The position numbers and the translations under genes were made by a program. DNA of 63,973 nucleotides, the filler included, from Psammoneis japonica (Eukaryota), in NCBI GenBank assembly GCA_008632985.1. It is 3 parts of 3 records of this genome, joined end to end, with 100 filler letters (N's around TTAATTAATTAA, not from the genome) between each part and the next. Parts side by side here need not be neighbours in the genome. Positions count along the whole stretch, not along the records: positions 1 to 22,713 come from QPGO01000435.1; 2 more parts are not named here. One strand, given 5' to 3'. The notes below the pieces were generated by a model. The model had not been told where the DNA came from and did no database searches. It saw only the letters and a list, made by a program, of their open reading frames with translations. Every line of letters begins with the position of its first letter. The first letter of the stretch is position 1. Below, in pieces: positions 1,549 to 45,512 of the stretch.

Positions 1549-1939
1549 GATGCGTTCCAGGTCTAGGTGGGACCTCGCACCACTGAACTGTGACATCGAT
1601 GGTTTTTTGAATCATGTCGTATGTCGCGCACGTAGATTTCTACGTGATTTTTTTCAATGTTTTGTGTCATTTTACGGCACACTTGTTGAGCGATCCGTCC
1701 AACAACTTTTGACATTTTTTGTCACAGCGCGATTCTACAATGTCTTAAGAATCGCGTAGGGCGGGCGCATTTGCAGAAACGTCGAGTGGCAAGAGGCATG
1801 ATTGCACCACAAACTTGGCAGTTTATTTGATGTTGAAGACAAACACATCCATTGGTCAAATTCTCGCACTGCGGAGCTCGCACGCAGAATTCTACGGGCC
1901 CAATGTCACACGGAGTCCCACCCAGGACTGGAACCCGTC
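1549..1939 (+). mobile_element. MITE family 1, copy A (~390 bp non-autonomous TIR element, TpA-eroded)
   Basis: TIRs GATGCGTTCCAG...CTGGAACCCGTC, extending imperfectly to GGTGGGAC. 4-bp TSD GGGT (1545-1548 / 1940-1943). Aligns along its length to the reverse complement of 6244-6632. Confidence 0.9.
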
Positions 1940-2632
1940 GGGTGCAGACGAAGGAGAGGTCAGGCGCCGCGGCGACGGAAGCATTGCAGGAGGACACAAG
2001 TTGGCATTGGCAGAGATTGAAAGAAAGTGGTTGATCCTTGCAAAGCTGGCACATCTGCAATTCATCACATCACATTTGAGGCACGAGATCCGCAGCTCAT
2101 TGTTGCTGAACACGTGTCAGCAACAGCCGCTCTGTTGACTCCACAAAAAAGCTGGCGCGACAATCTGTCATCGCGGTTGAGGAGCTAGACTAGATCAGCA
2201 GCCAAGCAACTGCTGTTAGAAACCACACTCTGTGTGACCATGTTTCATCTGTTTCAGCATGTCACAAAAGAAGAGCTGTTTGTGCAGTGTTTGCAAATTG
2301 GTGCCTCTCTCATTCCGTCATTTCGTGCTTTGCCAAATTTTTGAAAATTCCATGTGGTTTCGAACAAAACAGAAATCCACAATTCTCAATGACAGAAGAT
2401 GGGGCCAATCTGTTTAGATGCACTGTGCCTTCCCTCCCAATGTTGATGAAAGAAACGGGGAAATCGGTGTGAGGATCATTGAGACATCACACCGTAAAGT
2501 GGGAGGCCGGCGGTGGGCACCATTGTGCTGCTGCAGTTTGTTGCGTGCCACTGAGAAATGTGCACATGCAACGATGGATGTTGGCAATGCAAGTTTTGCA
2601 CGCGCATTCCGAGACAAGCGTCATTTTAAGAA

Positions 2633-2702
2633 TTTGCGGCCCACATGCGGGCCGCAAAAATTTGTGATGAGATTTTTGCGGCCCACATGCGGGCCGCAAA
2701 AT
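2633..2702. repeat. Tandem pair of GC-rich hairpins TTTGCGGCCC-ACATGC-GGGCCGCAAA
   Basis: The same ~26-bp inverted-repeat unit occurs twice about 40 bp apart, directly before the truncated 5' LTR. Probably the terminus of another element. Confidence 0.7.
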
Positions 2703-2713
2703 TGCGCAATGAG

Positions 2714-2830
2714 CACAAGATCTAATGAGAGCCGTTGCAACGGCGGGCTTCGCTGAAAGCGACCTCGTTGCCTGGGTCTTTTGCTCACAATTTTGTTGTC
2801 ACTGAAGTCTTCATCTCGTTAGACCTCACA
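2714..2830 (+). repeat. 5' LTR (5'-truncated) of the Gypsy element
   Basis: Matches ~8308-8420 (agagccgttgcaa...ctgaagtcttcatctc...gacctYRca) and ends in CA. Confidence 0.8.
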
Positions 2831-2859
2831 CTGTAATTACAGTCAATTCAAAGAACTGG

Positions 2860-4283
2860 ATGGAGACCAGAATCAATGCAAATAAATTGACTGAACATGA
2901 GAAAAGAGAGCTGCAGGCAAGAGCAGCAGTTTGGGCCATTGAGCATCAGAAGCAAGCGCAACAGCGCAAACAACACAAACAGAATTTGGCGAGCCAAGTG
3001 CATCAGTTGGAGTCAAAGGCAGAGTCCCTGGAAAGGACTGTGTTGAGCAATTGCACCCTGTTTTGCATGATGAGCAAATCATTGAAAGAGCCTTGTGTCA
3101 GCTGTGAAGCAAAGTTTGAGCGCTCTGATTTGGAGGAGAGGCGAAATGGACTCAGTCGCATGATGATGGCAGTGCTCATGGGAGGAAGTGTCCACATTTT
3201 GATGGCACTCATGGTGTTGAAGCCTTGCCATTTGTTGAAGATCATTTTTGTAAAATCGTTGTGAAATTGGAGTTTGCAACCGGAGAAGAGCTGTTTGACA
3301 ATTTTGAGGAAGTGTTGACTGACACAGCTGAGGACAAGTGGGTGAACTTGACTGGTGCCATTGCTGATGCTGACAAGACTGTTGCATGTTTTGATCAGGA
3401 GACAAATCATTTTTATTTGTCTTGTTGTGATGATGAAGCGTGTGACACCATGATTGAGTGTCTGCCAACCTTGAAAAAAGCGTTCAAATCGGAGGCACAG
3501 GCACATGCTGATCACATGGAAACCTTGATTCACTGCACTGACAAGTTGCCAGGAAATGCTCCCCAAGTCAACAAGGCCCAGAAAAAAAGGTGATGTTCTG
3601 CAGTTTTCCTTGTCCCTGGCCTTGGCGTGAGATGTGTGCTGGTGCGGGATGTTCGATGGCCAACGAAAGTCTCGCTGAGATCATCAGTTGTGTGAACAAC
3701 AAAAAATCCTTTGCCAACAAGAGCAGCAACAAGAAGCAAGACAAGAAGAGAAAGGGTGGTGGTCCTTCATCTCAAGCTTCAAGGCGTTCTCAAGGCAACG
3801 GCAACTGAGTCGATCCAGAATCCAGATGTCCAGTGCACACTGACCATGATCATCAGTGGAAGGATTGCACCCTGAAACAGGAGAGCCAAAACTGTTGACC
3901 AAGGTCAGACCATGATGGAGGTTGTGGTGGAGGCCAAGGGAACTGTCAAGGAAGAGGGCAGCAAGGCCAAGGAGGTTGTGGTGACTTCCAAGGTGGTGGT
4001 CAAGGTGGCTGCGGCAACCAAGGCGGTTGTGGAGGCCAAGGTTGCGGCAACTGCAACAATTTCCAGAATTCTCAGGGAAATGGATCCTGTTGTCAAAATT
4101 CAAAATGGCATTCAAAATGGCACCCAAGCCAACGGCGACACCCAAGGCTGTGGAAATCCAGATGGAACAGCTCCTCCTGGTGGCTGGCAAATGGAGTCGT
4201 GCCATTTTCATCAAGGAGGGCCTCGCAAGATGCGTGGTGGAAATGGGTGCAATCAGAGTGGTCGTTTCCCTCAAGGCAAATGA
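2860..4283 (+). pseudogene. Decayed gag-like region of the Gypsy element
   Basis: Broken ORFs between the 5' LTR and the protease, ending in Gly/Gln/Asn-rich low complexity. Assigned mainly by position. Confidence 0.5.
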
Positions 4284-7200
4284 AGTTAGCACAATTGACA
4301 GGGGACGGAAGTGCCCGAGTCAGAGCATGCTGCTCAATCTTTTGTGTTCCATGTGATTGTGACAAAAATGTGTGCTTTGATGTTGATGAAGATGTGGGAG
4401 ACCTGATGAAATCTCATGCCATGAATGAAGAAAATTTGGGCGGCACTTTGGAGTGCGCTGCACCAACCCCAAAAACTGTGACTCCTGAACCATTGAATGT
4501 GGTGCCTGCAATGTCAATGGCAGTGCGTGCAATTCAAAATCAAGAGAGTGAGTGGATTTTGCATGTGTTGTTAGATTCAGGAGGTGCTGACACCATTGTT
4601 CATTCTCGAGTTTTGCCAAAGGGAGCCAATCCGACCATGAATGATGAGGGACAACTGAGTTTCCAGACAGTCGCTGGACAATGTGAATCCTCCCGACATG
4701 TCATTGTGAAGGATCTAGTGTTGCCCAAATTCAACAAGTCCAAACAAGTTGATGGCATCACTGCTCAAGTTTTTGATGCTCCACGCAAATGTGCTGTGAC
4801 ATTGGGCCAAGACTTCCTTTCCAAGGCCGGAACAATGCTTGATTTTTGGTTCAGAATTGTGAAATGGTTGGATGTGTTGATCCCGATGAAGCAATCCAAT
4901 CACTGGAACTTAGCTCAGAATTGGCTGGACATGCTTGATAATCACAAGGAGGATGAAGATGATGAAGACCTCCAAGGTCAAGTCTTCATGTTGCGTGCCA
5001 AGAGTGAGAAGGTGTCAACCACAAAGGTGGCACAATCTCAAACTCATTTGACCCAAGAGCAACATGATGAGCTCCAAACTGTGCTTGAGAAGCATGAAAC
5101 CCTTTTTTACAGAACACTCAGTGGACATCCACACAAGACCGTTCATTTGGAAGTTGATCTCAACGCCGTGCCTTTTCACTCTAAGGCTCACAAAGTGTCC
5201 ATGCAAGACAAAGCTGTTTTCAAGAAAGAACTGCAACACTTGTGCAACATTGGCATCTTGGAACCAGCAGGACCAATGGAATGGGCGGCTGGAACTTTTG
5301 CAGCTCCCAAGAAAGATGGGCAAGTTCAATGGGTGTCCAATTTCCGAGAGTTGAACAAGGTTCTCAAGCAAAAGGTGTGCCCTTTGCCGATCATCCAAGA
5401 TGTTGTTCACCAACATTCAGGATGCAAACATTTGACCAAGTTGGACCTCACGATGTTCTGCTGCCACATTGAACTTGACAAAGAATCCAAAGATTTGCGC
5501 GCCATTGTCTCACTCCGTTTGGGAAATTTTGATGCTGTTGACTGGCCATGGGTTTGAAAACTGCTCCTGACACTGCTCAAGCTGTCATCAAGAAAGTGGC
5601 AAATGGACTTGATGTTGAAACCCACATTGATGACATTGCTCAATTTGACGATTCGTTCAATGCTCACATGCGTCAACTCGACGAGCTGCCATCCAGGCTG
5701 GAAGAAAATGACCTCAAGGTCAATCCGCTCAAGTGTGAGTGGTGCATCCAAGAGATGGAGTTTCCAGGCCATTGGCTTGTGCCTGCAGGAGTTTGACTGT
5801 GGAAGAAGAAAGTGGACACAGTGCTGAAAATGCAACCTCCTCAAACCATGACACAACTGCAATCTTTCATTGGTGCTGTCACTTGCTGTCGCAATGTGTG
5901 GCCCCGTTTCTCTCATGTGCTCACTCCGCTTGTGAAGCTGACAGGCAAGAGCAAACTGGAATGGACTCCTGAGTGTCAACAAGCTTTCAAAGATGTGAGG
6001 ACGTTGATTTTGGACAGCACCCTTTGGGTTTGTCCAGATCACAACAAGCCCTTCCACATTTGTGCTGATTCCTCTGACTGCTGTCAGATGGGAGCCGCAA
6101 TCATGCAAGAAGGGAAGCCAGCAGCATGTTGGTCACGGAAGCTCAGCATGGTGCAACAAAATTGTTGCACCATTGAAAAAGAACTGTTGGTGGTGGCAAT
6201 GTGTTTCAAGGAATTTTGCACCATGTTGCTTGGAGCTGATTGCGACGCGTTCCAGCCCTAGGTGGGACTCCGTGTGACATTTGGCCCGTAGAATTCTACG
6301 TGCGAGCTCCGTAGTACGAGAATTTAATTAATGGATATATTTATCTTCAACATCAAATAAACGGCCAAGTTTGTGGTACAATTATGCCTCTTACCACTCG
6401 ACGTTTTTGCAAATGCACCTGCCCTACGCGATTCTTAAGACATTATAGAATCGCGCTGTAACAAAAAATGTCAAAAGTTTTTGGACGGATCGCTCAATAA
6501 CTGTACCGTAAAATGACACAAAATATCAAAAAATCACGTAGAATTCTACGTGCGCGACATACGACGAGATTCAAAAAACTATCGATGTCACAGTTCAGCA
6601 GTGCGAGGTCCCACCTAGACCTGGAACGCGTCTTGCACTGTTTTTGTCAATCACAAAAATCTCACCTTTTGCACTCTCAATTCTCAACAAGTGCTCAGGT
6701 GGCGACTCTTCTTGGAAGACTTTGCTCCAACCTTTGAGTGCATTTGTGGCAAGGACAATCTGTTGGCTGATTGTTTTTCATTGTTGCCATGCACAGAAAC
6801 TCCTGCGGAAGGGAAGTGAGCTCCAAACAAGGGCAAACTGATTGATCTCAAGGCGATCGACACTGCTGTGTTGCCTCACGAAGAAGAAGAAATGAACAAA
6901 CCAGACCATGCATCTCATTTTTCCTGTTGTCATGAAGAGCCATTGCCCTTCTACTCCTCCTTTGTGGATGATCCCAAATTGTGCGAATCGTTCTTAAACT
7001 GTCCTTCCCTTGATGAAATGCAAAATCTGACGACCATGCAGCAGATCCAAGAACACCAGTTTGCTGATGTGGAATTGAACAACATGTGGCAACAGTGTCG
7101 TGAGCACTTCATTGTTGAACATGTGAATCAGCGCCCTGTGATTTGTTGTTGCACTCATCCAAATGATCCTCCAACCTTGTGGAAAATCTGCACTCTGACT

Positions 7201-8140
7201 GCCTTGTTGCCCGATGTGATGCAGTGGTGTCATGGAATGCCGGGACATGCGGGAGTGCATTGGATGCACTCCACTGTTGGCGTGCATTTTTGTCATCCTG
7301 TCCTGCATCAGATTTGTGAAGAATGTCATTGTGTTGATTGTCAACATTTAAAAACTTTGGGTCCTGGATGTGGGAACCTGCCTGAGCGTGAAGCACCTTC
7401 ACCACCATGGAATGAAGTGGCAGTTGACCTCATTGGTCCCTGGAAGATTAACATCCAGGGCTGTGAGATTGAAGTCAATGCATTGACCTGCACTGATGCT
7501 GTCTCAAACGTTGCTGAACTCACTTGCATTGAAAACAAAACCTCATCTCACATTGCTCAGCAATTTGAAAATTGTTGGTTGTCTTGTTGTCCTTGTCCCA
7601 GCCATTGCATTCATTGCAATGGTGGAGAATTTGTTGGAGAGGACTTTCAATTGATGTTGCAACAGGTGGGAGTGAACAATGTGCCAATGACTTCACGGAC
7701 CTGTTGGGAACATCTCACACACTTTGCTTCATGTTCATCCTCCACAGAACATTGGACAAGCCAATCAATTGGTGGACAATGCATTGGCGATGGCAATGCA
7801 TGCAATGCGATGTGCAGCACCCCATGCTCTCAAGATTTTGCTGGGTGCAATGGCATTTCAACGTGACATGAGACACTAGATCTGCCAGTTCTGGCAGATC
7901 TTGCTGCTGTTCAAGAACATCGCCAAGCAACCATCAATGTAAATCTGGGCAGAGCAAATTCCAAACACACCGATCCTGCAATTTTCAAGTTGGTGGGCAA
8001 ATCCTTGTCAAATCCATTGATCCTGCCAAGCTCAAGCCACAAGCACATGGCCCACATCCCATTGTTCAAGCACGTGCCAATGGCACAATTGTGGTTCAAC
8101 GTGCACCTCATGTGGTGGAATGACTTGACATTTGATGCAT
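4284..8140 (+). pseudogene. Decayed Gypsy pol polyprotein (PR-RT-RNase H-IN)
   Basis: Protease LLDSGG (~4568). RT motifs PKKDG..V.NFRELNK, LDLTMFCCHI (5441) and HIDDI (5623, canonical YIDD). RNase H ADSSD, ACWSRKL, EKELL. Integrase GHAG, AVDLIGPW (~7420), NGGEF. Confidence 0.92.
6244..6632 (-). mobile_element. MITE family 1, copy B (TpA-intact, probably young) inserted in Gypsy RNase H
   Basis: Perfect 12-bp TIR GACGCGTTCCAG / CTGGAACGCGTC and 4-bp TSD TTGC (6240-6243 / 6633-6636). Removing it restores the in-frame RNase H segment [14 protein letters not shown]. Confidence 0.95.
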
Positions 8141-8259: not shown

Positions 8260-8420
8260 TGCAGTGTCACGCACCCCATTTTTCTGACACATGGCATCAA
8301 CGATTCTACAAGATGAGACAAGAGCCGTTGCAATGGGCTTTGCTGAAAGCAACCTCATCACCTTGGTCTTTTGCTCACAATTTTGTCATCACTGAAGTCT
8401 TCATCTCATTGGACCTTGCA
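8260..8420 (+). repeat. 3' LTR of the Gypsy element
   Basis: Begins with TG directly after the PPT, ends in CA, homologous to 2714-2830. Confidence 0.85.
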
Positions 8421-8654
8421 TTGCCGGCATGCATGCCCACGAGAAGCCGGCTGCCAGTCCATCGCGCACAGGACTCGCGGTGTTTTTTTTCTGTGGTGCA
8501 CGTGCAGGGCGCGACACAACCAAATGTCATTGCTGCAAAGCACAAAATTCCTGAGCTTCATCACACTCATTTCAACATGATGCAAGAAATCATGATGCAG
8601 CACATGACACCATCTGTTCCTGGGCCATCTCGACAATTGTCGCCTTTGGCAGCA

Positions 8655-9052
8655 GATGGGTTCCAGTCCCAGCAGGTGGGACTTTTTGTGACATTGGGCC
8701 CGCAGAATTCTACGTACGAGCTCCGGATTACAAGAATCTAATCAATGGATGTTTTTGTCTTCAACATCAAATGAACAACCAAGTTTGTGGTGCAAGTGTG
8801 ACCATTGCCACTTGACATTTTTGCAAACGCGCCTGCCCTGCGCCACTCTCAAGACATTTGCGAATGGCGTAGAAGAAAAAAATGTCAAAAGTTGTTGGAC
8901 AGATCGCTCAATGAGTGTGCCACAAAATGATGCCAAATTTCAGAAAAGTCACGCACCTTTCTACGTGAGCGACATGCGGTGCGATCCAAAAAACTGTCAA
9001 TGTCACAGTTCAGCACTGCAGTGCGAGGTCCCACCTGGAGCTGGAATGCGTC
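8655..9052 (-). mobile_element. MITE family 1, copy C
   Basis: TIRs GATGGGTTCCAG...CTGGAATGCGTC, TSD AGCA (8651-8654 / 9053-9056), internally collinear with copy B. Confidence 0.9.
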
Positions 9053-9594
9053 AGCAGTGTGTCAGGCAACTCTCGCGTTCTTCAGCGGGGGCAAAAAATC
9101 TTGCGGCGCAAGTGGAGGCTGTGTGCTGCTTTCTCAGTTGAGGGTGGCTGACACGCAACTTTTGCCACATTTTTTTCATTGACATGCTTGTTCTCTTTCA
9201 TTTTTTTGTGAAACTTGGTCAGTGTGAGAACCGCTGCAAAACTGTTGATCCCGCAGCTTTGAAATGTGGCGGGCAATGTCACATGTGTTCCACAGCATGG
9301 CAAGGCTGGCAATGAGTGGCGGCACCAAAGTGATGACTGTCAGAAGTGCAGGAAAGAACAAAGCCTTTGGTGTTGCCTTCAGCTGTCTTTGCTGGCACCA
9401 ATGAGTTTCCCAGACAGTTGCTCAAGTGAGGCTCATCCCCCCATGCACTGTGCTGTCTGTCAAGCAGGGCACCACAAACTGACCCAATTGCTTGGCAGCA
9501 GCCTGCCCTCCAGCAACCTGAGGGTTGTTCTGTCATTCACAGAATGATGTGTGTGGACGTCCTGCAATGTGGAAGTTTCAGCACAAGATCTGGA

Positions 9595-10545
9595 GATGCA
9601 CTCCAGCTCCAGGTGGGATCTCATGCTGCTGGACTGTGACACAATCATTTTTTGTCATCCGCTGCATGTTTTGCATGCACATTTGTTCCACACTGCCTGT
9701 TTTGTGAAGCCAAAGGCTTTCTGTTTTCTGCATTTGTGATGACGAAAATGCGCTGGGCACACTCTTTAATGTCTCTGATGAACACACCGGCCATGCTGTC
9801 AACTGTGCACTTGAGGGGGTCATCCCCGTGTTTGTCCTAAAGTTTTGGTGGCTTTTGAACAAGAGTGTTTGTGAGAGATTGTTTTTGAACACAAAATCAT
9901 TTTTTTTGTCACATCGGATTGCTGATCGTGCACAAAAACAAGAACATCAAGAACCACGGTCAAAGCATGACAACAACAAGAATTGTTGACAAATTCTCAA
10001 AATGCAATTTTGGTGGCATTTGAACAAGAATGTTTGTAAGAGATTGTTTTTGAATGCAAAAATTGTTCATGTTGTCACATCTGATCGCCGATCGCGCACG
10101 AAAACGAGAACATGAAGCACCGCAATCGAAGCACAACGATGATGACAATCGTTGACATTTCTCAAAAACATGGCATTTTGTGTGCAAACTTTTCTTGTGT
10201 GTGAGATCTTTGATGCACAAAGAACACAACACAAAGGAGAGTTGGTGCACGGACTGCCTCTGTTGCAGACTTGTGGCTTGCCATTTTTCACTGCTGTGAA
10301 GCACGGTGAAATTCAGGAAAAATCATGCAAAACACGAGCTGTTCAGCCAAATTTGAGCTAAAACAAGTGGCGACTGACCACCCTTAAATTGTGGAGGAGG
10401 AGATTTGTTTGCGAAATTGCCTCTTTTTCTGTTTGCGATCATTTGCACACTTGCTCTGCTTGACAATTTCACTGTGGAGCTCGTCGCACTTGGAACTCTG
10501 CTGGCCGAATGTCACAAAAAGTCCCACCCAGGACTGGAGCTCATC
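9595..10545 (+). mobile_element. MITE family 1, longer variant D (~950 bp)
   Basis: Degenerate TIRs GATGCACTCCAG...CTGGAGCTCATC, TSD TGGA (9591-9594 / 10546-10549), internal duplicated segment (~9858-9957 vs ~10024-10123). Confidence 0.8.
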
Positions 10546-11005
10546 TGGAACATTCTTGCATGGAAGGGTGCAAGCTGGGCATCCGTGTTAAAAAAACAGA
10601 GTTGCTGGCTGTTGACGGCTTTTCCGAACAGCAAAAAATGTTGTGGGCCTCTGCCTTCCCAAAAAACAAGTTTGCCCAGGGGACTGCCCATCTCTCTCAA
10701 CATCAGAGTGGCAATTTGTTTCCAGCTGTGCACTCATCTTCAATGAGACTCTTCATCATTTCCCTGTCTTCTTCCACCGCGGCATTGTGGAGTTTCAAAA
10801 CCAGCTCACAGGAGAAGCTGCAGTCATCAGAATTTGTCAGAAAGAAGAAAGGACAGGCAGGTTGCTCACTTGCACTGTGGGCTCTTCAATGGCTGTTTTG
10901 CAATTGCAGGAATGGAAACCGGGTGCTGCCAGAATTTGGATTGGAAGTTTCAACAAAGTTGCTCAAAAAGATCACGGCGAAGTGTGGGAAATGCGAGCCA
11001 TTTTA

Positions 11006-14000
11006 AATGGAGACCAGGACATTTAAAAAATGGGTGACAGCGCGCACGCGAACAGAAATCCCAAAAATTCCCGATTCAAAAACACCAACCGTCACCATGA
11101 CTGTCAGTCAGTTGCGTCCGTTTCATCCTGGTGGTCTGCATTGTTGCTGTTTGACACATCAGAACCCCATTTCGTGTGCTGTGGGAACAAAAGGCTGCCG
11201 ATCACTGGTGTGTCACGTTCTCGAGAAAGAAGGAATGTCGGTTGATGACTTGTGCACCACTTTGCAGCACAGAGCGACGGTGCATGTTGTGGCATGTGGC
11301 AGAGACGACTTGTTTGTTGCATGTTGACACCAACTGGCACATCTCGGAAACACATGAATCGTGCAAGTGGACCCATGCCATCAGGAAGAGGCAGTGGCGC
11401 AAGTGGCAACCATCACCTGTTTTGTCTTTTGCTTCTAACACAAGTGTCCCACGCATGACACATGGAGCGGGCTTTGTTAAGAATTCATTTGTCACCTTGG
11501 GTCGGAAGTCTGCGTTTCTAAAGAATCTTCTGTGTCGACACTTGTGATTTTGTGAGAAACCGATGGCACATTGCTTGGTTCAAAGCATGAGCATGGACTT
11601 GGGACCACACCTGGTGGTTCCGACAGTGTCGATGACAGCGCCCCACTCGGAACAGATGATGGAGTCACGTGGTTGCTGGTGTGTTGCTTGTTTCAGATGA
11701 TGGATGACGCCAATTGGCTTGTCTCGGAAATGGAGCAATCTTGTCAGTGGACCCACACCATTGGACTGGGAGGTTGTGCGCAGTCAGCGCAGCTGATGGA
11801 TTTGTGGACGGCATCACTGGTGGCAGTGGGAGCCTGGTTGCTGCCAGCACCAGTGGAGGTGGGAGCCTGTGTGGCTGCCAGCACTGGTTGAGGCAGTTGG
11901 AGCGTGTGCACCACCAGCAATTGAGGTGGTTGGATCCTTCTATCTTCTTGCGGTGCCTGCTCTTGTGCTGTGTGCTGCTGGCACTGGTGGCAGTGGCAGC
12001 CTGGTCACTCTGCCAGCACTGGTGGCGGTGGGAGCCTGTGTGGCTGCTGGTGCTGGTCGAGGCGGTTGGAGCGTGTGCACTGCCAGCAATCAAGGCGGTG
12101 TTAGACGTGTTACACTGGCAGATGGTGGTGTGTTTGGCATTGGGTGCGGCGCACCAGTCGGCGCTGGATGTGTTGCACCAGCAGATGGTGGCGTGGGTGG
12201 CAATGGGCACGGCGTAGATGGGGAGCGTGGGCTGCCAGCAACTTCACATTCTTGTTTTGGTTGCGTCTTGCATGAGGCAAATGTGTTGGAGCGGGCAAGG
12301 AAATGCAACAACTCGACGCCCTGGAATTGTCGAGTGTGCGCGGAATTGAATCCGTGATTGCACCGGTGGGAGCGTGGGCTGCTGGTGGCTTCATGTTCTT
12401 GTTTTGATTGTGTCTTGCACGAGGCGAATTTATTGGAGCGGGCAAGGAAATGCAGCAACTCAATGCCCTGGAGTTGTCGAGTGCATGCAGAATTGAAGCC
12501 GTGATTGCACCGGTGGGAGCATGGGCTGCTGGTGGCTTCATGTTCTTGTTTTGATTGTGTCTTGCACGAGGCGAATTTATTGGAGCGGGTGAGGAAACGC
12601 AACAACTCAATGCCCCTGGAATTGTCGAGTGTGTGCCGAATTGAACACGTGATTGAAAGATCCGAAATGTCAAAAGCCTCCACAACATCAAGCGGTTACG
12701 AGAATGGCAGGTGACAAGGTTGTTAGATGCAATGAGATCAAAACAACTCTCTTGTTGTCAGTGAAAAGAAGCAGTTGTTAACAATGCACATTTGTGGTGC
12801 AGGCTTGGGCATGAAATTAGCCTGGAAAGCCATGTGTCACACGATTGTTCAACGGCATGGCACTGTCGAGTTGACCTTGATGCCACGTTAAACATGCCCC
12901 GACAGCTCCGAGACATGGACAGCAAACCTGTCCATCTTTAGCATGTGTGTTTGTCACTTGTTGACATTCTGTCACTGGGATCATCCGAGTCTCATCTACT
13001 CTCTGCTGCACCGACTTGTTGGCCCGAGTCAATTCCCTTGCCTTCGCACTTCGTCAAGTTTTCCGGTGCCTTGCCAAAGCCACAACAGCCCCAGAACCAA
13101 GATCGATCTTCCTTCATTCAACCACATGGATCCCGAAAAGCATCCAATTCTGCAACAATGGAAATTGCAAAATCCATCCTTGACGTTTCAATGTCCACCA
13201 CGTGCGTTGTCTTGGAAGATTCATTCGCAGCATGGCTTGCAGGAAACGCCTCTTGCACCACGCCATTGCTGTGGGGATGTTGACACGGTGATTGCTCACC
13301 ACAGCGCGATAGAAAATAGGAATCCAATGTGGCAGACGGTGTCATTTGGATCTTCGTTGGTCCAAACATGACGTCGTCCAGTGTTCCGTCCCGTTTTAAA
13401 TGCTCGGTCCATCCAGAGCTGCGCTTCAAACGTTGTTCTGGACCCGAAAGTCTTCGACTCATGCATTCAATGTCCAGTCCAAGGATGTCATCTTGATCAC
13501 TGCCATGCACTGGTGCAACACGTCCAACACACCCAACACCGGCTGCACCATGCCCAATGCCACCATCTGCCAGTGCAACACGTCCAACACCATTTAAACC
13601 CAGTGAGGCACCATCCATGAAACGGCCAGCGGTTCCATCAACACTCCTCTCCCCATTTGAAGTCAAAGTGCTACACCATCATCAATTTCATCTCCCGTGC
13701 CAAGTGATGTGCCATCACCCATGCCATCCGCAATGCCAAGTGATGCACCATCACGTGAGCCATCCATGAATCCATTGTCTGCGCCGAGTGGTGCGCCATC
13801 ATCAATGCTGTTGGAACGGCCAAGTGTGGTTCCAAGCAAAGAGCCGCTGTCTGCTCCATGCTCATGCTTTGAACCAAGAAACATGCCACCCGTGTGTGCC
13901 ATCCGGAATTGCAACGTCACGCGTGCCATCCACAAAGCCATTGTCTGCAACAAGCATTGCGCCATCATTGACACGGAAGATTCTTTAGAAACACAGTCTT

Positions 14001-14558
14001 CTGATCCATGGCAACATCTGAATTCTTAACAAAGCCCACTCCACATGTCTTGCGTGGGACAACAAAGAAGTGCATCCAAAGCAACAGGCAAATCAATTGC
14101 TGGTTGATCAACTGATCAAGTGCAGACACACACAACTGCTGGCACGCAACAAGGCACACGGTTGCCACTTACACTGCTGCCTCTTCCCAATGACAAGTCC
14201 ATTGATGTGATTGCTACATTTCCGAGACAAGCCAGTTGGTGTCAACATGCAATAAACGAGTCGTCTCCACCTGCCACGCACTGTCGCTCCGTGCCGAAAA
14301 ATGGTGCATGAGTCATCAAACGACATTCCATCTTTATGGAGAAAGTGACAAGCCAGTAATCAGCAGCCTTTTATCTCCATAGCGGATGAAGTGGAGTTAT
14401 GATGTGTTACACAGCAACAATGCAGACTACGGGATGAGACGGACGCAACAAACTGACGGTCATGGAGGTGACGGTTGGTTGTGTTTTGAATCGGAATTTT
14501 GTGGATTTCTTTGCGCGTGCGCGCTGTCACCCGTTTTTTTAATGTCCTGGTCTCCATT
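11006..14558. mobile_element. Foldback-like element / long inverted repeat carrying Pro/Ser-rich gene fragments
   Basis: ~11006-12200 is homologous in inverted orientation to ~13500-14558. Both outer ends read AATGGAGACCAGGACAT, and the ORF track gives METRTFKKW on + and METRTLKKR on -. No clear TSD. Confidence 0.7.
12222..12650. repeat. Tandem repeat, ~147-bp unit x3
   Basis: Unit starting GGAGCGTGGGCTGC recurs at ~12222, 12369 and 12516. Confidence 0.9.
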
Positions 14559-14856
14559 AGACCGCAGCACGTGGATCCATCCTCAACGGCCGCGAGAACA
14601 CCTTACTTCCGTTGTCGTGGATTTTGTACCAAAACCCACAAAATGTGACCTACTGTACAGTGAGACTACCTCTCAACTTCCGCCTCCGAAGACAGAAGTT
14701 TCAAATTCTGCAAACTCCAGCCAAGCGAGTCTATTTCGCACCGCAATTAACGATGTCACAGATCACACGGAGCAGCTTTTGTCGGGTCGTTGCGCCTGTT
14801 TTGTCTCCACAATCTTCCTTGTTAAGGCTCCAGGGCACAATCAGTTTCAACGGACA

Positions 14857-17666
14857 ATGATGCGGGGAACATCACTTCTTACACTGTTTGTTTTGCAGTG
14901 GTGTAGTTCCCTAGCGGATGCATCTCAGTTGCTGACTCTCTTGCCTTTTGAAAACCCGTCAAGTGTCGCTCATCTGGCCTCTGCAGCTCTAGCTTTGGAC
15001 CATTGCGTACGTTTCTCGCCCTTCATAAATTATGTGATTTCGAAAGTGAATCTATTGCACTTACAACCTTTTTCTTTCGTTTTATTTCAGACAACCCGCA
15101 ATCCAGTGATTGTCAAGGAACTGTCAACCATGTGCAACAGCAACAGTAGCAACATCGAGGATCTGTTTCTAAAAGCCATTGATACAAGTCTCAATGCACC
15201 CACCGCCCTGGCACGGTTCGTGGACACCGACTTGACGGGTACACTCGGCATTGTGGGCCCACCAATTCCTGATATGGTGACTGCTACGGCGGCGTGGGCA
15301 GAATTTTGGAATGTTCCTCAGATACTTTTCAGCGAATACAATGTTCCACCTGGAACCGGGTCTTCTAGTTTAGCTACCGAAAGGAACCTTGTCGGTGATG
15401 TCGATGTGCTGGCCAAGGCACTGATTTCCAAATTTAAGCATCGAGGATATATGCAGCTCCTGTTTGACAGCGGCAACGAGGCTCTCAAGAATATCTTGCG
15501 CACCACCAGGAAGTTTAAAGAAACCAGAGTCAATGTTTTGCCTGACAATTTGTTACCACCAGTGACTGAACAGGAGGGGGCGAAGATACCCCAGGGATCA
15601 AATCGACGCCTTCAATCAATGTCGGGAAGCGGTTCGGGAAGTGGCGATGGTACTGGCCGTGAGGATAGCTATAGCATCCTGGAGGACGCCGCCGAAGAAG
15701 TCGAGGAAGACGGCATGCACACCATTTTTGTTCTTGCTGACAATTTTGAGGTTCTGCAACAACTAGCTGAGCTTGCGATAGAATACAATGTCGTTGGTCC
15801 CGACTGGTTCTGGATCCTCAATGGAGACCTCTTTCCCGGATTGACCCATCTGGACCCGGAGCCCTTGGAGCTTGAAGAGGGTTCAGCCTTAGAGCGTTTA
15901 CTTCGAGGTGCTGCGATCTATACACATCATGATCCCTTTATTTATGAGCCGAAAGGCGATCCATTTCTCGATACGTGGAGAGCCCAAGACTCTAATCAAG
16001 TTGAAAAGATGAACGCGATTCACCCGCAGCGTGGCATGCCCGATTTCACTCCTGCAGAATCGGATTTCTTCCAATCTAATGACCCCGTGCCATATTCATC
16101 CTTTGTCTATGATGCGATTATAACCCATTGTTTGAGAACCTGTAGCAAAGAAGATTTCTTGAAACGTGGAGAATTCAGTTTTGACGGTGCTTCGGGAGAA
16201 GTGGAGATGGTTGATGGGAAAGTTAGCAGTGACGATTCTAGGTTTGGAATTTACAATTTGAGGTCTGATAGAGGAAGGTAAGTTCCTGGAACACGTCAAT
16301 GCTACTTTTAACTATCTTTTCAAAAGGCCTTTTTCGCTTGCGTATTCCCAGGATCGAGGCAGTGCTATCCTCTTTGTACGAAAGCGGAGAGTGGACTGAA
16401 GTCGCCGAATTCCTTTACTATGACGGCACCCCAGATGAGCCGGAGGTGCTGGTAACCGTCATAGAGCCAAACTTTCTTTCCAACTCTGTACAAATGGCAG
16501 GGTTTATGCTTGTGGCTCTATCATATGTTATTTCATTTTCTTCTTTGGTATGGGTTATCTGGAAGAGAAATACCGGTATTCTCAAGGCATCTCAACCCTT
16601 CTTTCTTGGTTTGCTGTGCATTGGGTCCTCGGTACTCATGTCATCAGTTATGTTCGTGTCGTTCGATGAGAGCGATGGATGGTCTCAAACGAAGCTGAAC
16701 AGGGGATGCGCAGCCGTACCATGGTTCTTCACCATAGGCTACATGGTGATGTACTGCGCGATGTATTGCAAACTCTGGAGGATCAAAAAGATTTTTTCTA
16801 TCCGACGAAGAACTGTTACGGTGACCCGGGCAATGATACCTTTTCTTGTACTTGTCACGCTTTGCCTTGTGGTACTAATTGTTTGGCAGTTGGTTGATCC
16901 CTTGTCATGGGTGCGAAGATTTCTTGACCCGGATTCCGCCGGTAGAGAAATTACCTACGGAGACTGTCAGACTGTTGATACAAACTTGGCCGCATGGGTA
17001 GTTCCATTGCTTGCCCTGCTTGCCACGATCACCATAATGACGATGGTTGTCGCATGGAAAACAAGAGAAATACAGTCTGAATATTCTGAATCCATGTGGG
17101 TCTTCTTCGCTGTATTCGCTCACCTTCAGTCATGGTTGGTCGGTCTACCACTCATTTTCGTGCTCGATGACGTGTCCAAGGATGCCGCCTACCTTACTCG
17201 GGTTTTCTTTGTGTTCGTGCTTGCTACTTCTACGCCAATCATGGTGATTTGGCCCAAGATTTATCGGGTACTTCAAGAGAAGTACTTTCCTACTAGACGC
17301 TTGAATACAAGTAGGTCTAGCACTCCGTCAGTGCGATTGCCAAATGATTCTTCCTCCGTCCGTATTACTGGGGTATCTGAACCTTTCAGTGGATCATCGA
17401 GCCATTCATTGAGGCGGGGCATAAGGGGATCAAATCATTCAGCTACAGACCCCACGTCATTGCAGACGAAAATTGATGATCTCGAGATGCAAAATCTGGC
17501 TCTGCGCGAAGAGCTGAAAGCATTGAAAAGCGGCGATAAGAATACGGAAGATGATTCTGTTGCCACTTCAAACACAGTTGATCGAAAAGGTGTACCAGTC
17601 GAGAGCGAGGAGACAGACAATAAGCGTCAACTGGAGTCATTGCACGAGGAGGAAGATAATGATTGA
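14857..17666 (+). CDS. Class C (GABA-B receptor-like, 7tm_3) GPCR; predicted exons 14857-15006, 15091-16277, 16352-17666
   Basis: Signal-peptide-like start MMRGTSLLTLFVLQW, large extracellular domain, seven hydrophobic helices with family motifs (KASQPFFL, KLWR, DPL.W.R, Y.ES), C-terminal coiled coil. Intron 16278-16351 (GTAAGT..CCCAG) joins the two ORFs in frame. Intron 15007-15090 (GTACGT..TTCAG) is in-frame and less certain. TpA content is normal. Confidence 0.88.
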
Positions 17667-18399: not shown

Positions 18400-21300
18400 C
18401 ATGGCAAAAAGTGTGCATTTGGTCGAAATCGAGCATTGAGTGCAAATTGTGGTGTCTTTGGGGTCCCTTTGGTGATCCGAACACCCACATTTCTCATCTG
18501 ACCATCATGGGTCCATCTCATGGTGGGTGTCAGAAATGTTGTGACGGGGCGCGTCTTGAGGAACAATCGTCACGTGGCACACGCAGCTGCGAAGGTCGCA
18601 CAAACTTGAAAAACACACACATGAAAAAAGCAACTGTGCACTCCCTTTTATGACCATGACACCGATGCGTTGATGATGGCACATTCCATGTGGGAAGACT
18701 GCACTTCCCCACATCTGCAGCTTGCTCAAATTGCAAGAATGTGGCAGCTTCCTTCATTGCTGCATGGAGAGTCTTGAGCTCTTTGTGGTCAACCTTGATG
18801 GCAAGCACCTCTGACCCTCTCAGACCGATCTTTCCTTTTTTGCAGCTGCCCACCTCGCTCATCACAGCTGCAACTTGAAGCTCAACTCTCCTCCGGGGTC
18901 GGGCATGAGATGACATGAGATCACAAGTTGACCATGCGGCCCTTGCTGTGCTGCACCACAGATCTCAATGTGTTTCCTTGTGCACGCCAAAAGCACCCAC
19001 AACTCGCTCCAGCTCTGGGCGGGACCTTGCACTGCTGTGCTGTGACATCAAGAGTTTTTTGGATCGCGGCACGTCGTGCGTGCAGTTTTCTGCGTGACAC
19101 TCTACAAAATTGTTCCATGCTCCCCACTTTGCAAGGCCAAAGGCTTTCTGTTTTCAACATTCATGAGAATGAAAATGCTCTGGGTGCATTCTTTGACCCT
19201 TTCAAACATTGAACTTTCTAAATTGCAAAAAGGGTTCCCCCAGATTTTTGGCGAGTGTGCGCTCCAAAACAAAATCGCGTGAATGAAATGTTGTGCACAT
19301 CTGAAATTACTTCATTCACTGTGTCCAGTGGTTGAAGGGTTGATGTCTGCAGAACATGCTCGGGCAAGCTGTCAATGATGCGCTGCAAGTGTGGAGGAGG
19401 AGAAGCATTCACAAACTTGCCTCTTTTTCTGTTGGCGGTCATTTGTGTTTTCATTGCTTGACAAATTTGCTGCGCAGCTTGCACGCAGAATTCTTTGGGA
19501 CCAATGTCACATGGAGTCCCACCCAGGACTGGAACCCATCCCATTGCCCTCTGTCTGCAGCTGTCAGGTTGACTGGGGCCATCTGGGGGTTGTTTCATTC
19601 TTGAGTGGGCAGCCAACAGAGGGAGAAACCTGGTGGCAAAGTGCCAGACAGTGCCAGAGCAGAAAGTCACTTCTGCCAAACAGCTTGCACTTGTGGCTTT
19701 TGCATGCACTCTGCATGTCACAAGGAGCAACCCCATGGGTTTGGGTGGGTTTCTTGCTTGTGGCTGTGCAGCCACAACAACTCTGCACTTGCAAAAGCTG
19801 CAAGCAATGTGGGGGCACAAGTGCACCATGTGAACCCATCAAAGCCAAAACACAGCTCTTAAAGTGTTGCCTTGCCCTCGCCAAATGCCTCAAATGCCTT
19901 TGTCCTGCAGCTGTTGGGTCAGTCTTTTGGGGACATCGGCGCAACATTGCTTTTTTGGGTGCGCCAACATGGGTTCCAAATTGATGCAGGGAAAAGCACG
20001 CAAGATTGTGACACGAGAAAATGGTCACTTTTGCCAAACCTTGTCATTGAAGCACACACAGCCAACTGCATCAGTTTTCATTCAACATTTTGATGCATGC
20101 ATTGGTGCCAGCTGTCACATTGATGCGTTCATGGTTGGAAATGTGACAAAGCACGTCCAGACATTTGGGAACAAAACAAGAATGAATGGGGTTGCAAGTC
20201 GAGTCCTTGATGGTCTTCACCAAGACGGTGGGCACACCTGCTGCAACAAGCTTTTTGCAGTGGAGCTTGTTGGGAAGATCGCTTGCAGTTGGAAGTTCAC
20301 ATGGCATGCAAATGTTGTCCTCATCAGAGAAAAAGTCATCGCTGTCAAAATCTTCCGGCACATGCCAGATGGTTTTGTCACCTTCGACAACCTGTTCAAT
20401 CTTGTGGCTTTCAGGCTCACTTGTTGTGTGTGACTTCTGCATGTGCCCTGCCAGCAGCCTTTTCAACATCTTCAAACTCGCCCATCTCCTCCATGTCTTT
20501 CAACACAACAGACTTGCCACTTGTTTCCTTTGCTTCATCAGGAGCACCCTTTCTCTTCTTCCAGTTTCTGCAGAGGCAGCGGCCATGATGCAACAATGTT
20601 TTGCAGTGAGATGAATCAATGCATGCTGTGTGCTTGATGCACTTCACCAAATTCATTTTGAGATTGAAGGTTTGATGATTTTGCTCTCAGCAATGCATGC
20701 GGAGCTTTTTTGGGCACATTGATTGCCACAGACACCAAGCGGCCTTTTCACACTCTTTGAACTTGGTCAACTCCACTTCTTGTGACACAACAGACTCACC
20801 ACTTGCTTCCTTTGCTTCACCCTTTCTTTTGTTTCCAGCTTCTGAGGAGGCGATGGCCATGACATCAACAATGTCTTGCAGAAAAACAAGTCAACGCATG
20901 CCATGTGCTTGACACGCTTTGCCAAATTCGTTTTGAGGTTTTGCTGTCAACAATGCATGTGGGGCATTTTTGGGAACACAAATGACCACAGACACCAATG
21001 GAACAAGAGAGACATGTTTCTCTCAAAAATTGCACATGGAGCATTTTCGGGTGCATGACAACCACAGCCGTCAATGGAACAACAGACATTTTTCCCTTGC
21101 GGGTTGCATTTGGAGAAATGTGATCTTGCCAGTGCATGTGGAGCATTTTTGTTTGCTTCATTTTGGGAAAAGTGAGGTTCAAGGAAAAGCATGTCCCCAG
21201 CGAAAAAGGGCCAGATGGAATGGAAGAGAAAGGCTGGGCAGCCTGGGAAAAAAAGAGAATGTTCTGAAAGAGGATGTTCTGAAAGAGGACACCTCAATCA

Positions 21301-22713: not shown

Positions 22714-22813
22714 NNNNNNNNNNNNNNNNNNNNNNNNNNNNNNNNNNNNNNNNNNNNTTAATTAATTAANNNNNNNNNNNNNNNNNNNNNNNNNNNNNNN
22801 NNNNNNNNNNNNN
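22714..22813. other. Artificial scaffold spacer (N44-TTAATTAATTAA-N44)
   Basis: Six-frame-stop 12-mer centred in exactly 100 bp; identical structure at 45413-45512. Confidence 0.95.
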
Positions 22814-23560: not shown

Positions 23561-25360
23561 AAAATGTATTTGTACATCCTCTTGTATCAATCACACTGTA
23601 TTTTTTGTAGTTTAGTTCATTTGGTAGACCGTACATTTGCGTCGTTTGGCTCGTGTCATTGTGTGCTGTTTTTCGCGTTTGTTCCAAAAATCAAAAAAGT
23701 CTGTCTGTCGTGCGATTCCGCTAGTCTATCACGAACCACACATCACACACACACACATCACACATCGGCTCGCGGTCTTGAACAACCATGACGCTATCAA
23801 CAGCACTACGAATCATCATGTAACAACAACAACAACGATGTCATAACGTTTGGAGGATTATCCGCCTCGTGAGTAGAACACATCAACAATGAGAGTTGTT
23901 TTGAACAAACTGTGTTGTTGTTGCATGAGTCGAATGCTGCCGCTTGTGAAAATCATTGACACGCTGCTGCTGCCACGCACGCTACAATATTGTTGTTGTA
24001 CATGTCTACGCACTCTCATACTCATCACTCCTTCTCTTTCACACTCTCTCTCTCTCTCTCTCTTGACTACACGTAATGATTCACTTAAGTGTTGTCAAGA
24101 CACACAAGTCCTTTGAGGGCTTGACTGCAGCTACCGGGGAGCATGCCCACAGAGTATGGAATCAGCAGCAGAGCCGGAACCAGTCAATCAAAAGTCGAAC
24201 AACTGTCTCAGCAAGCACTCATAGGCATGGTGGAGCGAAGGTATTGTACGAGNNNNNNNNNNNNNNNNNNNNNNNNNNNNNNNNNNNNNNNNNNNNNNNN
24301 NNNNNNNNNNNNNNNNNNNNNNNNNNNNNNNNNNNNNNNNNNNNNNNNNNNNNNNNNNNNNNNNNNNNNNNNNNNNNNNNNNNNNNNNNNNNNNNNNNNN
24401 NNNNNNNNNNNNNNNNNNNNNNNNNNNNNNNNNNNNNNNNNNNNNNNNNNNNNNNNNNNNNNNNNNNNNNNNNNNNNNNNNNNNNNNNNNNNNNNNNNNN
24501 NNNNNNNNNNNNNNNNNNNNNNNNNNNNNNNNNNNNNNNNNNNNNNNNNNNNNNNNNNNNNNNNNNNNNNNNNNNNNNNNNNNNNNNNNNNNNNNNNNNN
24601 NNNNNNNNNNNNNNNNNNNNNNNNNNNNNNNNNNNNNNNNNNNNNNNNNNNNNNNNNNNNNNNNNNNNNNNNNNNNNNNNNNNNNNNNNNNNNNNNNNNN
24701 NNNNNNNNNNNNNNNNNNNNNNNNNNNNNNNNNNNNNNNNNNNNNNNNNNNNNNNNNNNNNNNNNNNNNNNNNNNNNNNNNNNNNNNNNNNNNNNNNNNN
24801 NNNNNNNNNNNNNNNNNNNNNNNNNNNNNNNNNNNNNNNNNNNNNNNNNNNNNNNNNNNNNNNNNNNNNNNNNNNNNNNNNNNNCGATGAGGAAATCAAC
24901 ATCCAAACAACCACAACCGAAGGGGGGTGCACGGTGCCGGTACTGCTACTACTACTACTACTGCTACTGCTGTACGAACTATATAACAACAATGACACGG
25001 ATGATTATGACTTTGGAAATGTCGATATCTTTGTTTCGACCATTCCATCGACACCCGTCAATATTAACGATGACAACGACAAGAAGGATGACGAAGAGTA
25101 TTAGTAGTATCAACAATGGCACTAATAACAATGGCGCGGTGGTGGAAATATCATTTCATCCTATGGAGACTTGAAAGCACGATTTGCCGATAAACTCAAC
25201 AAAAAAAAGGGACCGCTTGGCTGCTTGTGGGATGTCTTTGTTCCTCCCTAATACTACTGCGAATAATAAGGACAAGGACAATGAAAACTACAATGACCTT
25301 GGAGATGCCGATAGAGGAAGGGGTTCCTTTGATACCACATGCGTGGCGGAATATAAAAAT

Positions 25361-26268
25361 GTACAATTGCAAGAACGAAACTGAATCCTCGAGACGGTTG
25401 GGAAGCGATGGAGGATGAATTCATGAATCATGAGCGCTGCTCCGACTCGACTGTTGTTGCAAATAATATATTGTCGGCCTATACTGTGCAACCCGTCTGG
25501 AAGACACTCTCTGCTATGGGGTGTTTGTCTTGGAATCGGTAGAGCCTGAACCATGGTCTCTCAAAATTCAAACTCCTGTCTCGGCAAACAATGCAGGCAC
25601 GGTGGAGCAAGCGTACTGGATGCAACGAACGATTCGTGACGTGGTCTTGGAATTTCTGCGCTCTCTTCATTTCGCCAGATGCTTTTTTTGGATTTCCAAG
25701 AAACTCTCTAGACTGACTGCTCTCCACTCTCTAGCTGTAGCTCTAGAGATCCCTACATAAAGAGTAACACGTCCCCAGCTGCTAGTAGAGCCACTCTCTC
25801 ACATGACAGTACAACTTGCAAGAACGAAACTGAATCCTCGAGACGGTTGGGAAGCGATGGAGGATGAATTCATGAATCATGAGCGCTGCTCCGACTCGAC
25901 TGTTGTTGCAAATGATATATTGTCGGCCTATACTCTGCAACCCGTCTGGAAGACACTCTCTGCATTGCTAAGGAGTAGTTGTCTTGGAGTCGGTAGAGGC
26001 TGAACCATGGTCTCTCAAAAATTCAAACTCCTGTCTCGGCAAACAATGCAGGCACGGTGGAGCAAGCGTACTGGATGCAACGAACGATTCGTGACGTGGT
26101 CTTGGAATTTCTGCGCTCTCTTCATTTCGCCAGATGCTTTTTTTGGATTTCCAAGAAACTCTCTAGACTGACTGCTCTCCACTCTCTAGCTGTAGCTCTA
26201 GAGATCCCTACATAAAGAGTAACACGTCCCCAGCTGCCAGTAGAGCCACTCTCTTGCACGACAGTACA
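25361..26268. repeat. Near-identical tandem duplication, ~450-bp unit x2 (also at ~40462-41380)
   Basis: TTGCAAGAACGAAACTGAATCCTCGAGACGG recurs at ~25367 and ~25816. Normal TpA content; looks like a duplicated gene fragment. Confidence 0.9.
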
Positions 26269-26678
26269 ATAGAGAGAGAGAGTGCTTTGGATTTTAAGAG
26301 AGATAATAGAGGACGCACACAGCATGCTATGCTAGCTAGCTGCTTTCCGTCCCAGCTTCGTGGCACCACGTGTAAAAATTAACCCCCCATTTTTAACCAA
26401 ATGCCCACCTCGATCGACTGGCAGTAACCAGATACGAAGTTCAGCACACTTTTGGGGGCCTAGAGAATGGGGGTGAACGTTAGTTACTAACTAACCAATC
26501 ACTGAATGCTGACTTTGCACTTGCCCGTGTGACAAAGGTGCACCACGAAAAGTTAGTTTTATTTTGAAATACCGAGATACCATGAACAACACATGCCCAT
26601 TGCATTCTTGCAAGACATTGTTTTTTAAAGACTGGGAGACCGATGATGCTCATGTCTTGTGCACTTTGTAGCTCTGCT

Positions 26679-41600: not shown

Positions 41601-41789
41601 AACTAACCAATCACTGAATGCTGACTTTGCACTTGCCCGTGTGACAAAGGTGCACCACGAAAAGTTAGTTTATTTTGAAATACCGAGATACCATGAACAA
41701 CACATGCCCATTGCATTCTTGCAAGACATTGTTTTTTAAAGACTGGGAGACCGATGATGCTCATGTCTTGTGCACTTTGTAGCTCTGCT

Positions 41790-45412: not shown

Positions 45413-45512
45413 NNNNNNNNNNNNNNNNNNNNNNNNNNNNNNNNNNNNNNNNNNNNTTAATTAATTAANNNNNNNNNNNNNNNNNNNNNNNNNNNNNNNN
45501 NNNNNNNNNNNN
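45413..45512. other. Artificial scaffold spacer (N44-TTAATTAATTAA-N44)
   Basis: Same structure as 22714-22813. Confidence 0.95.

Follow-up and report, generated by a model that had tools for sequence, protein, structure and literature searches.

Why should a stretch of DNA that has lost nearly all of its 5'-TA-3' dinucleotides (TpA) harbour, in its midst, a short repeat that is full of them? This question is raised by a window of 63,973 nucleotides (nt), filler included, from the genome of Psammoneis japonica (assembly GCA_008632985.1; three parts of three records joined end to end, with positions counted along the whole). In the part that comes from QPGO01000435.1, a degraded Ty3/Gypsy-type retroelement is interrupted by a miniature inverted-repeat transposable element (MITE), which we call copy B and which has sister copies in the window. 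An original prediction, made from a comparison of the inner part of B with one of these sisters, had proposed that TpA is eroded to TG or CA after insertion. The explanation that we find best overall, and that we hold to be likely, is an erosion of this kind acting on mobile DNA through a putative adenine deaminase, with B having inserted after its host had already been stripped of TpA.

The repeat unit is longer than the 115-nt stretch that was first noted (6302-6416), which forms the inner part of an element of 389 bp. The element and its immediate surroundings are as follows (o/e, observed over expected).

6244..6632, + strand: MITE copy B, nearly uneroded, with 28 TpA (o/e 0.90) and 28 CpG (o/e 1.56)
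6244-6268 and 6608-6632: terminal inverted repeats of copy B, 25 nt each, 23 of the 25 matching as reverse complements
6240..6243, + strand, repeated at 6633-6636: the 4-bp target-site duplication TTGC of copy B
5183..6243: TA-free left flank of copy B, 0 TA in 1,061 nt
6633..6951: TA-free right flank of copy B, 0 TA in 319 nt

The edges of copy B are set by the loose ends of many contigs, whose diverse flanks start at 6244 and at 6632/6633. These contigs come from a public run in which 96% of the words sampled from a unique gene region of the window are present, and 2,970 contig pieces align to the 389-bp element; a second public run yielded one piece only. Four contigs read through the Gypsy flanks without the MITE, so that the MITE at this place is an insertion. 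The sister copies A and C have 4-bp duplications of their own (ACCC and AGCA, respectively) and inverted ends as in B, and stops interrupt all three forward frames across copy B, which is small and non-coding. The inverted ends, the copy-specific 4-bp duplications, the size and the copy number all fit a very abundant MITE, and the element is classified here as such, while a non-specific target duplication of 4 bp names no MITE superfamily. A 32-letter pattern representing the element's conserved core had no matches in a metagenome scan, and Rfam gave none within the window. The TA-rich state of B inside an eroded Gypsy element, which had been claimed from the start, is thus plain to see (28 TA in 389 nt between flanks that have none). 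That B arrived after the Gypsy element was eroded, also part of the original prediction, is the most economical reading of these TA-free flanks and of the four contigs without the element.

How do the other members of the family compare? A search with nhmmer recovers the five copies that had been reported for the window, namely A, B and C and two older copies, D and E, that are split.

1549..1939, - strand: MITE copy A, partly eroded, keeping 10 of the 28 TpA of B and 24 of the 28 CpG
8655..9052, + strand: MITE copy C, strongly eroded, keeping 4 of 28 TpA and 13 of 28 CpG, about 80% identical to B
18998..19545, - strand: MITE copy D, old and split, with ends at 19405-19545 and 18998-19115
9587..10555, - strand: MITE copy E, old and split, with ends at 10465-10555 and 9587-9690

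Within 6302-6416 the earlier counts were reproduced: when A is reverse-complemented, TG (7) or CA (3) stands at ten of the 11 TpA of B, only three other differences occur (at 6328, 6363 and 6407), and CpGs are mostly kept (5 of 6 retained in A). Changed letters here amount to 10 of 22 at TA vs 3 of 93 elsewhere (Fisher p=1.8e-6). The same holds over the whole element, where 35 of 389 columns differ between A and B and 18 of these are TA in B vs TG or CA in A (18 of 56 TA letters changed vs 17 of 333 others, p=3.8e-8). Copy A has thus lost 18 of the 28 TpA of B, which are now TG (12) or CA (6), and copy C has lost 24, of which 18 became TG or CA and six are in other states, while in D and E none of the TA sites of B that can be aligned still reads TA. 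Along the series formed by B, A, C and the old repeats, TpA o/e runs from 0.90 through 0.38 and 0.22 to about 0.03, and CpG o/e from 1.56 through 1.19 and 0.78 to about 0.3. Erosion of TpA outpaces the decay of CpG, as had been proposed, both in copy A (18/28 vs 4/28 lost, p=2.7e-4) and in copy C (24/28 vs 15/28, p=0.019). The sites lost in A were not significantly clustered along the element (12/16 in the first half vs 6/12 in the second, p=0.24). A disappearance of the TpA excess once all copies were aligned was looked for and not seen, the excess holding across the five copies and the contigs of the public run.

Taken alone, the comparison of A with B is symmetric and cannot give the direction of change. 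A process of the fungal type, in which C is changed to T at CpA as in repeat-induced point mutation (RIP), could have hit B, and the TG and CA of A would then be the ancestral states; in line with this, both A and C differ from B at 10 sites and are in the same state at 6 of these. At the other four the two copies are opposite (CA vs TG), and at 7 of the 28 TA sites of B, TG and CA both occur among the five copies (6259, 6297, 6315, 6383, 6498, 6580 and 6616). Since TG and CA are each one step away from TA, and a change between TG and CA needs two, such mixed sites speak for a TA ancestor. A CpG ancestor of the CA and TG states was considered too and was ruled out, as none of the window copies has CG at the TA sites of B.

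The contigs of the public run tell the same story. T>C and A>G variants are each frequent at the same TA (6336-6339), and at 6358, 6384, 6459, 6498, 6504 and 6581 the common contig variant is opposite to the state found in A or C. Among the variants listed, which are 40 of 86 (21 inside the element and 19 in its flanks, with 46 unlisted), 16 of the 21 within the element are changes of TA to TG or CA across the 2,970 contig pieces; the other five are four letters at which B is in the minority (0.6-12% of depth) and one CpA in B vs CpG elsewhere. Beyond the MITE family, adjacent CA-vs-TG differences number 51 in 21 window repeat pairs, vs 64 for all other adjacent doubles combined. Moreover, the remaining repeat DNA of the window is nearly TA-free and not TA-rich, tyrosine codons of the Gypsy pol were turned into histidine and cysteine codons (see below), and a 4.6-kb duplicate (25666-30301 and 40777-45412) with 99.5% identity has 112 vs 111 TA and not a single TA-type difference. 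It follows from the mixed sites, the contig variants, the loss of tyrosine and the CA-vs-TG doubles that the opposite, RIP-like direction is to be rejected, and we regard it as very improbable. An ancestral TG or CA state was therefore searched for and not seen, and from the distribution of states among copies TA is ancestral, with TG and CA derived. Duplication alone, to judge from the 4.6-kb pair, would not trigger the erosion.

What is the host into which copy B inserted? The matches to reverse transcriptase and RNase H identify it as an element of Ty3/Gypsy type, with the following parts.

3899..7866, + strand: degraded Ty3/Gypsy-type pol region hosting copy B
About 4560-4823: protease-like stretch, weak match
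5542-5793: reverse transcriptase (yeast Ty3 reverse transcriptase, 4ol8, E=6.8e-5; murine leukaemia virus (MLV) reverse transcriptase, E about 4e-11)
5797-6243: RNase H, interrupted by the MITE (RT_RNaseH_2, E=1.3e-19, in an open reading frame (ORF) that ends at the insertion point)
About 7448-7678: integrase-like stretch, weak match
2715..2833, + strand: candidate long terminal repeat (LTR) remnant, paired with 8308-8423 as a direct repeat, 81.5% over 119 columns

The matches to protease, RVT_1 and rve stand in Gypsy order, at E=0.03-0.1, below the Pfam cut-offs. The candidate LTRs, the sole pair to come out of the LTR search, lie on either side of the pol region, about 5.6 kb apart; of the 15 substitutions between them, 10 fall on TA, CG, CA or TG steps, and their differences include four adjacent CA-vs-TG pairs, five of CpG type and one of TA type. 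The erosion can be read in the protein as well. The catalytic YLDD of Ty3 (the YxDD motif) is aligned to HIDD, with CAC as the histidine codon, and the conserved AY of the MLV enzyme is aligned to AC. Tyrosine makes up 2 of 1,133 residues in the Gypsy pol pieces vs 2.1-5.4% in five host ORFs, while cysteine reaches 2.4-9.2% (vs 1.3-1.9% in host ORFs) and histidine 2.0-6.6% (vs 0.9-3.2%).

As the host is a retroelement, one may ask if its RNA or complementary DNA (cDNA) was hypermutated in the manner of ADAR, so that it was TA-free at insertion and the pattern in the MITE is unrelated. ADAR-type enzymes favour U before the edited A, according to the preprint on Bigelowiella natans discussed below (bioRxiv 10.64898/2026.01.13.699255). 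Editing of a sense RNA would give TG only, and on the Gypsy coding strand between 3001 and 6000 the balance (TG-CA)/(TG+CA) is only +0.02 to +0.15. Of the 19 flank variant places listed, 8 have TG or CA in the window copy and TA or CG in other Gypsy copies of the public run, and the candidate LTR pair differs by the four CA-vs-TG doubles. The same signature is borne by a DNA transposon family, and transposition of a MITE has no RNA stage. Editing before integration is accordingly a most doubtful account of this locus, and erosion of the integrated DNA remains the reading that we prefer.

Where in the window does this erosion act? The whole window has a TpA o/e of 0.30, and its 1-kb bins are bimodal. 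Bins with host genes have a TpA o/e of 0.5-0.7, CA+TG of 1.1-1.3 and CpG of 0.8-1.35, and bins with repeats have a TpA o/e of 0.00-0.10, CA+TG of 1.4-1.9 and CpG mostly of 0.16-0.4. By the cluster thresholds used for B. natans (rho at most 0.43 for TpA and at least 1.52 for CpA+TpG), 34 of 62 bins qualify, mostly in runs of at least three. Block edges are sharp, about 39 TA per kb giving way to 1-3 per kb in the space of a bin (as from 26001-27000 to 27001-29000), and the erosion is confined to blocks. In eroded bins TG is about as frequent as CA. Since this is so, and since a DNA transposon family is affected, the process hits both strands of DNA and not a sense RNA.

This distribution bears on a simpler possibility, which is that a genome-wide bias from TpA to TG or CA is not targeted at all, that purifying selection keeps TpA in genes, and that B is merely very recent. 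The low TpA o/e of the whole window fits such a bias, as do the host ORFs, in which TpA is itself low (0.53-0.58) and CA and TG are in excess at codon positions 2-3 and 3-1. Selection on coding sequence, on the other hand, is hard to reconcile with the finding that TpA in the host ORFs is alike at positions 1-2, 2-3 and 3-1, including the largely synonymous ones, and that it is kept in the stretches between host ORFs as well (rho 0.40-0.96). In the Gypsy element TpA is 0.02-0.09 at all three codon-position classes. The abrupt changes from block to block are not expected under an untargeted bias, nor is it expected that the lineage leading to B gained several changes outside TA and kept its TpA. 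In addition, the comparable process in B. natans is described as local and 1000-fold over background (bioRxiv 10.64898/2026.01.13.699255). An untargeted bias is therefore an explanation that we think quite unlikely, and we return to a process directed at mobile DNA.

The sequence context of the sites that survive indicates that the target is wider than TA itself. Surviving TA in depleted bins comprise 7 RTAY, 40 mixed and 52 YTAR sites, where normal bins have 271, 386 and 129, respectively (p=9e-18), and relative to normal bins TAT is depleted to 0.03, TAC to 0.05, TAG to 0.11 and TAA to 0.18. The favoured target is 5'-TAY-3', equivalent to 5'-RTA-3' on the opposite strand. At sites of mixed context, 21 of the 27 cases that the window copies offer have the change on the strand that reads TAY (p=0.006); these cases are non-independent in that the copies share ancestry. 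In the contigs of the public run, the TAY strand was changed in all 10 mixed-context variants listed, and none of the five YTAR sites of B is among the variants listed.

These patterns together show a TpA-specific transition process, from A:T to G:C, that acts on both strands of integrated mobile DNA, is confined to blocks and prefers TAY. We envisage that in integrated mobile or repeated DNA 5'-TA-3' would be turned into TG or CA, that is, A:T into G:C at the A of either strand, until nearly every TpA has been removed from the affected block, with CpG being lost there too, more slowly. Copy B would have inserted, with duplication of TTGC, into the RNase H part of an already dead Ty3/Gypsy element; A, C, D and E would be progressively worn copies, and B would have been spared by its late arrival. 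The agent may be an enzyme of the TadA/ADAT kind that, in a T-A context, deaminates adenine to hypoxanthine (which polymerases read as G), and it could be recruited to silenced or foreign chromatin. The T-A context is that of U33-A34, the natural substrate of tRNA adenine deaminases.

Could the mutated base be instead the thymine of 5'-RTA-3'? If this thymine were, for example, enzymatically oxidised to 5-hydroxymethyluracil, or modified further, and then miscoded or was faultily repaired, the outcome and the targeting would be the same, and since T-to-C on one strand is A-to-G on the other, all of our counts fit both routes. Dinoflagellates carry hydroxymethyluracil at TpA. Furthermore, TET-type enzymes are described as oxidising thymine at TpA (PMC11804724). 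We found no evidence, on the other hand, that hydroxymethyluracil gives T-to-C transitions, and the T-A context suits the substrate of a tRNA adenine deaminase, of which B. natans has an ADAT2-like candidate according to the preprint (bioRxiv 10.64898/2026.01.13.699255). The thymine route is thus unlikely in our view, and a deaminase acting on adenine is the agent that we favour.

The timing of the erosion is less simple than its direction. Most simply, B came late, into a Gypsy element that had been stripped beforehand. The original prediction had it that erosion accumulates with time after insertion; the direction, from TA to TG or CA, stood, and a steady, clock-like accumulation found no clear support, for the changes outside TA that can be polarised with copy C are about 6 in B vs about 9 in A. 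Judged by these counts, B appears not to be clearly less diverged than A outside TpA. The four odd letters of B belong to a minority subfamily in the contigs. That B's lineage retained TpA while changing at other letters suggests that erosion is governed by a per-locus switch, or comes in bursts, rather than by a clock.

This similar divergence of A and B weighs against the overall explanation, as do several other points, besides the shared ancestry of the copies and the partial listing of variants mentioned above. At 6599-6600, B and C have CA vs TG in A; here a TpA of the family has probably been eroded in B too, and B would then not be fully pristine. The contig depths used above are k-mer sums and not copy numbers. 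Host genes are moderately TpA-poor (0.53-0.58), with CA and TG at 1.2-1.5 at positions 2-3 and 3-1, and a weak genome-wide component of TpA loss is possible. In the other TA-free blocks none of 41 stop-to-stop ORFs had a Pfam match, so only the Gypsy element and the MITEs are recognised as mobile. A-to-G on one strand is indistinguishable from T-to-C on the other, and no enzyme was seen, none of the window ORFs that were scanned having matched a deaminase family.

Is such a process known from elsewhere? RIP and cytosine methylation are the textbook cases of genome mutation of parasites, and both work via cytosine. For a process that destroys TpA by A:T to G:C changes, the literature that we searched holds a single earlier report, a 2026 preprint on mutation-accumulation lines of the marine alga B. 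natans: of 231 mutations in two viral insertions, 230 changed A to G or T to C, each of these at a TpA (Mettrop et al., bioRxiv 10.64898/2026.01.13.699255). The preprint describes this hypermutation as about 1000 times background and as present only in some lines, reports 124 clusters poor in TpA and rich in CA+TG, finds TpA-poor genes enriched in reverse-transcriptase and DDE domains, and proposes an adenine deaminase for the signature, with an ADAT2-like candidate. As far as the preprint describes it, the resemblance to our window is close. Only TpA is changed, to TpG or CpA, the regions are of foreign origin, and blocks are depleted of TpA and enriched in CA+TG. There is no copy-number trigger, the giant-virus region there being single copy and the 99.5% duplicate here being untouched, and in both there are hints of an activity that is switch-like and not constant.

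The two cases differ as well. In B. natans the process was measured directly, mainly in giant-virus and virophage insertions, whereas our evidence is comparative only; transposons are implicated there only through Pfam enrichment, whereas here a Gypsy element, a MITE family and unassigned repeats are involved; and the viral region described there has a TpA rho of 0.45, whereas here values of 0.00-0.10 extend over about half of the window. The co-depletion of CpG and the 5'-TAY preference are seen here, and the text of the preprint does not speak of a wider context. The organism of the window appears to be a eukaryote poor in introns and other than B. natans, since it has long uninterrupted ORFs and its best protein matches are at 36-44% identity. 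Proteins of B. natans are present in the database searched, and the genes of B. natans are intron-rich.

The likeness to RIP of ascomycete fungi lies in transitions made in place, at one dinucleotide and on both strands, which disable mobile DNA and leave sharp-edged, skewed blocks beside normal genes. RIP, as described in PMC7296669, acts by C-to-T changes at CpA, which yield TpA and reduce the GC content, whereas here TpA is destroyed and CA and TG are created. Duplication triggers RIP, unlike what is seen in the 4.6-kb pair. Deamination of 5-methylcytosine at CpG acts in the same blocks (CpG o/e 0.16-0.4 in most eroded bins vs about 0.8-1.3 in host-gene bins) and also ends in TG or CA, but it cannot remove TpA and is slower here (in copy A, 4/28 CpG vs 18/28 TpA). 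Editing of retroelements by ADAR or APOBEC in animals (PMC4866542) likewise leaves clusters of deaminase-made transitions that are fixed in genomic copies. Those enzymes act on RNA, or on cDNA as the element replicates, on one strand, whereas here both strands and a DNA transposon are affected.

We see, then, the same signature as in B. natans, now in transposons, almost complete and in an apparently different organism. To the earlier report the window adds a natural series of copies whose polarity is known, an action that reaches both DNA strands, and a TAY motif that narrows the search for the enzyme. We would put forward, as a possibility that falls somewhat short of being probable, that a second eukaryote, seemingly unrelated to Bigelowiella and belonging to a poorly sampled lineage, runs a genome-scale, adenine-directed counterpart of RIP, which removes TpA from integrated transposons block by block and on both strands, with a preference for TAY, through a deaminase derived from TadA/ADAT and under a per-locus switch. 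If this were true, the switch would explain how an active MITE subfamily keeps its TpA, and eukaryotes would have in TpA erosion a genome defence that is widespread and has been overlooked, with the MITE family as a ready read-out.

There are practical consequences for annotation. Eroded DNA has nearly no TAA or TAG and is full of long false ORFs, and many of the 38 ORFs of at least 200 aa in the window fall in eroded blocks. Over the six frames of 2000-6243 there are 249 TGA vs 32 TAA+TAG, and over those of 57000-61800 there are 204 vs 18. As TGA is nearly the sole stop left, long ORFs in TA-free DNA are artefacts. The eroded proteins lose tyrosine and gain cysteine and histidine, which hides transposon domains from profile searches, as in the 41 unrecognised ORFs.

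The host genes of the window are of another kind.

14386-17666, 30406-32016, 34272-37999 and 45457-47840: host genes, as long uninterrupted ORFs

The products of the host ORFs are an uncharacterised ORF of 631 aa, a class C seven-transmembrane receptor, a NOX-type reductase, a protein kinase, an FG-GAP/Kelch protein and Nup84/107; the kinase carries an MLKL_N-like head, a match below the Pfam cut-off. Their best homologues are 36-44% identical, which places the organism in a poorly sampled lineage of eukaryotes, and those of fungi and oomycetes 25-27%. A protein-atlas search gave generic Nup84 clusters only.

A second repeat, unrelated to the MITE, also occurs as a pair of unlike copies, and gives a second before/after comparison.

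14160..14558, - strand: TA-bearing copy of the second repeat, with 11 TA; its partner at 11006-11411 has 1 TA and 80% identity

The differences within this pair comprise eight of TA type, 10 of CpG type and four CA-vs-TG doubles.

Runs of N account for 3,071 bases of the window.

22714-22813, 24253-24884, 38000-38783, 40544-40776, 45413-45512, 50616-50952, 53823-54495 and 61892-62127: runs of N

Low-GC bins, which are not AT-rich islands, and a repeat family of 332 copies were both rejected as artefacts of these runs.

The 4.6-kb duplicate belongs to a larger segmental duplication (24885-30301 and 39981-45412), about 15.1 kb apart in window coordinates, which is 97-100% identical and includes stretches of normal TA content as well as TA-free ones; it may have arisen very recently or be an artefact of assembly. 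Finally, 48045-56727 is made up of tandem units of 2.6 kb together with an inverted copy, at 89-99% identity, and is mostly TA-free. Within it lie two TA-bearing islands (49890-50615 and 52505-53309), which include a 54-bp tandem repeat and may represent another late insertion into eroded DNA.

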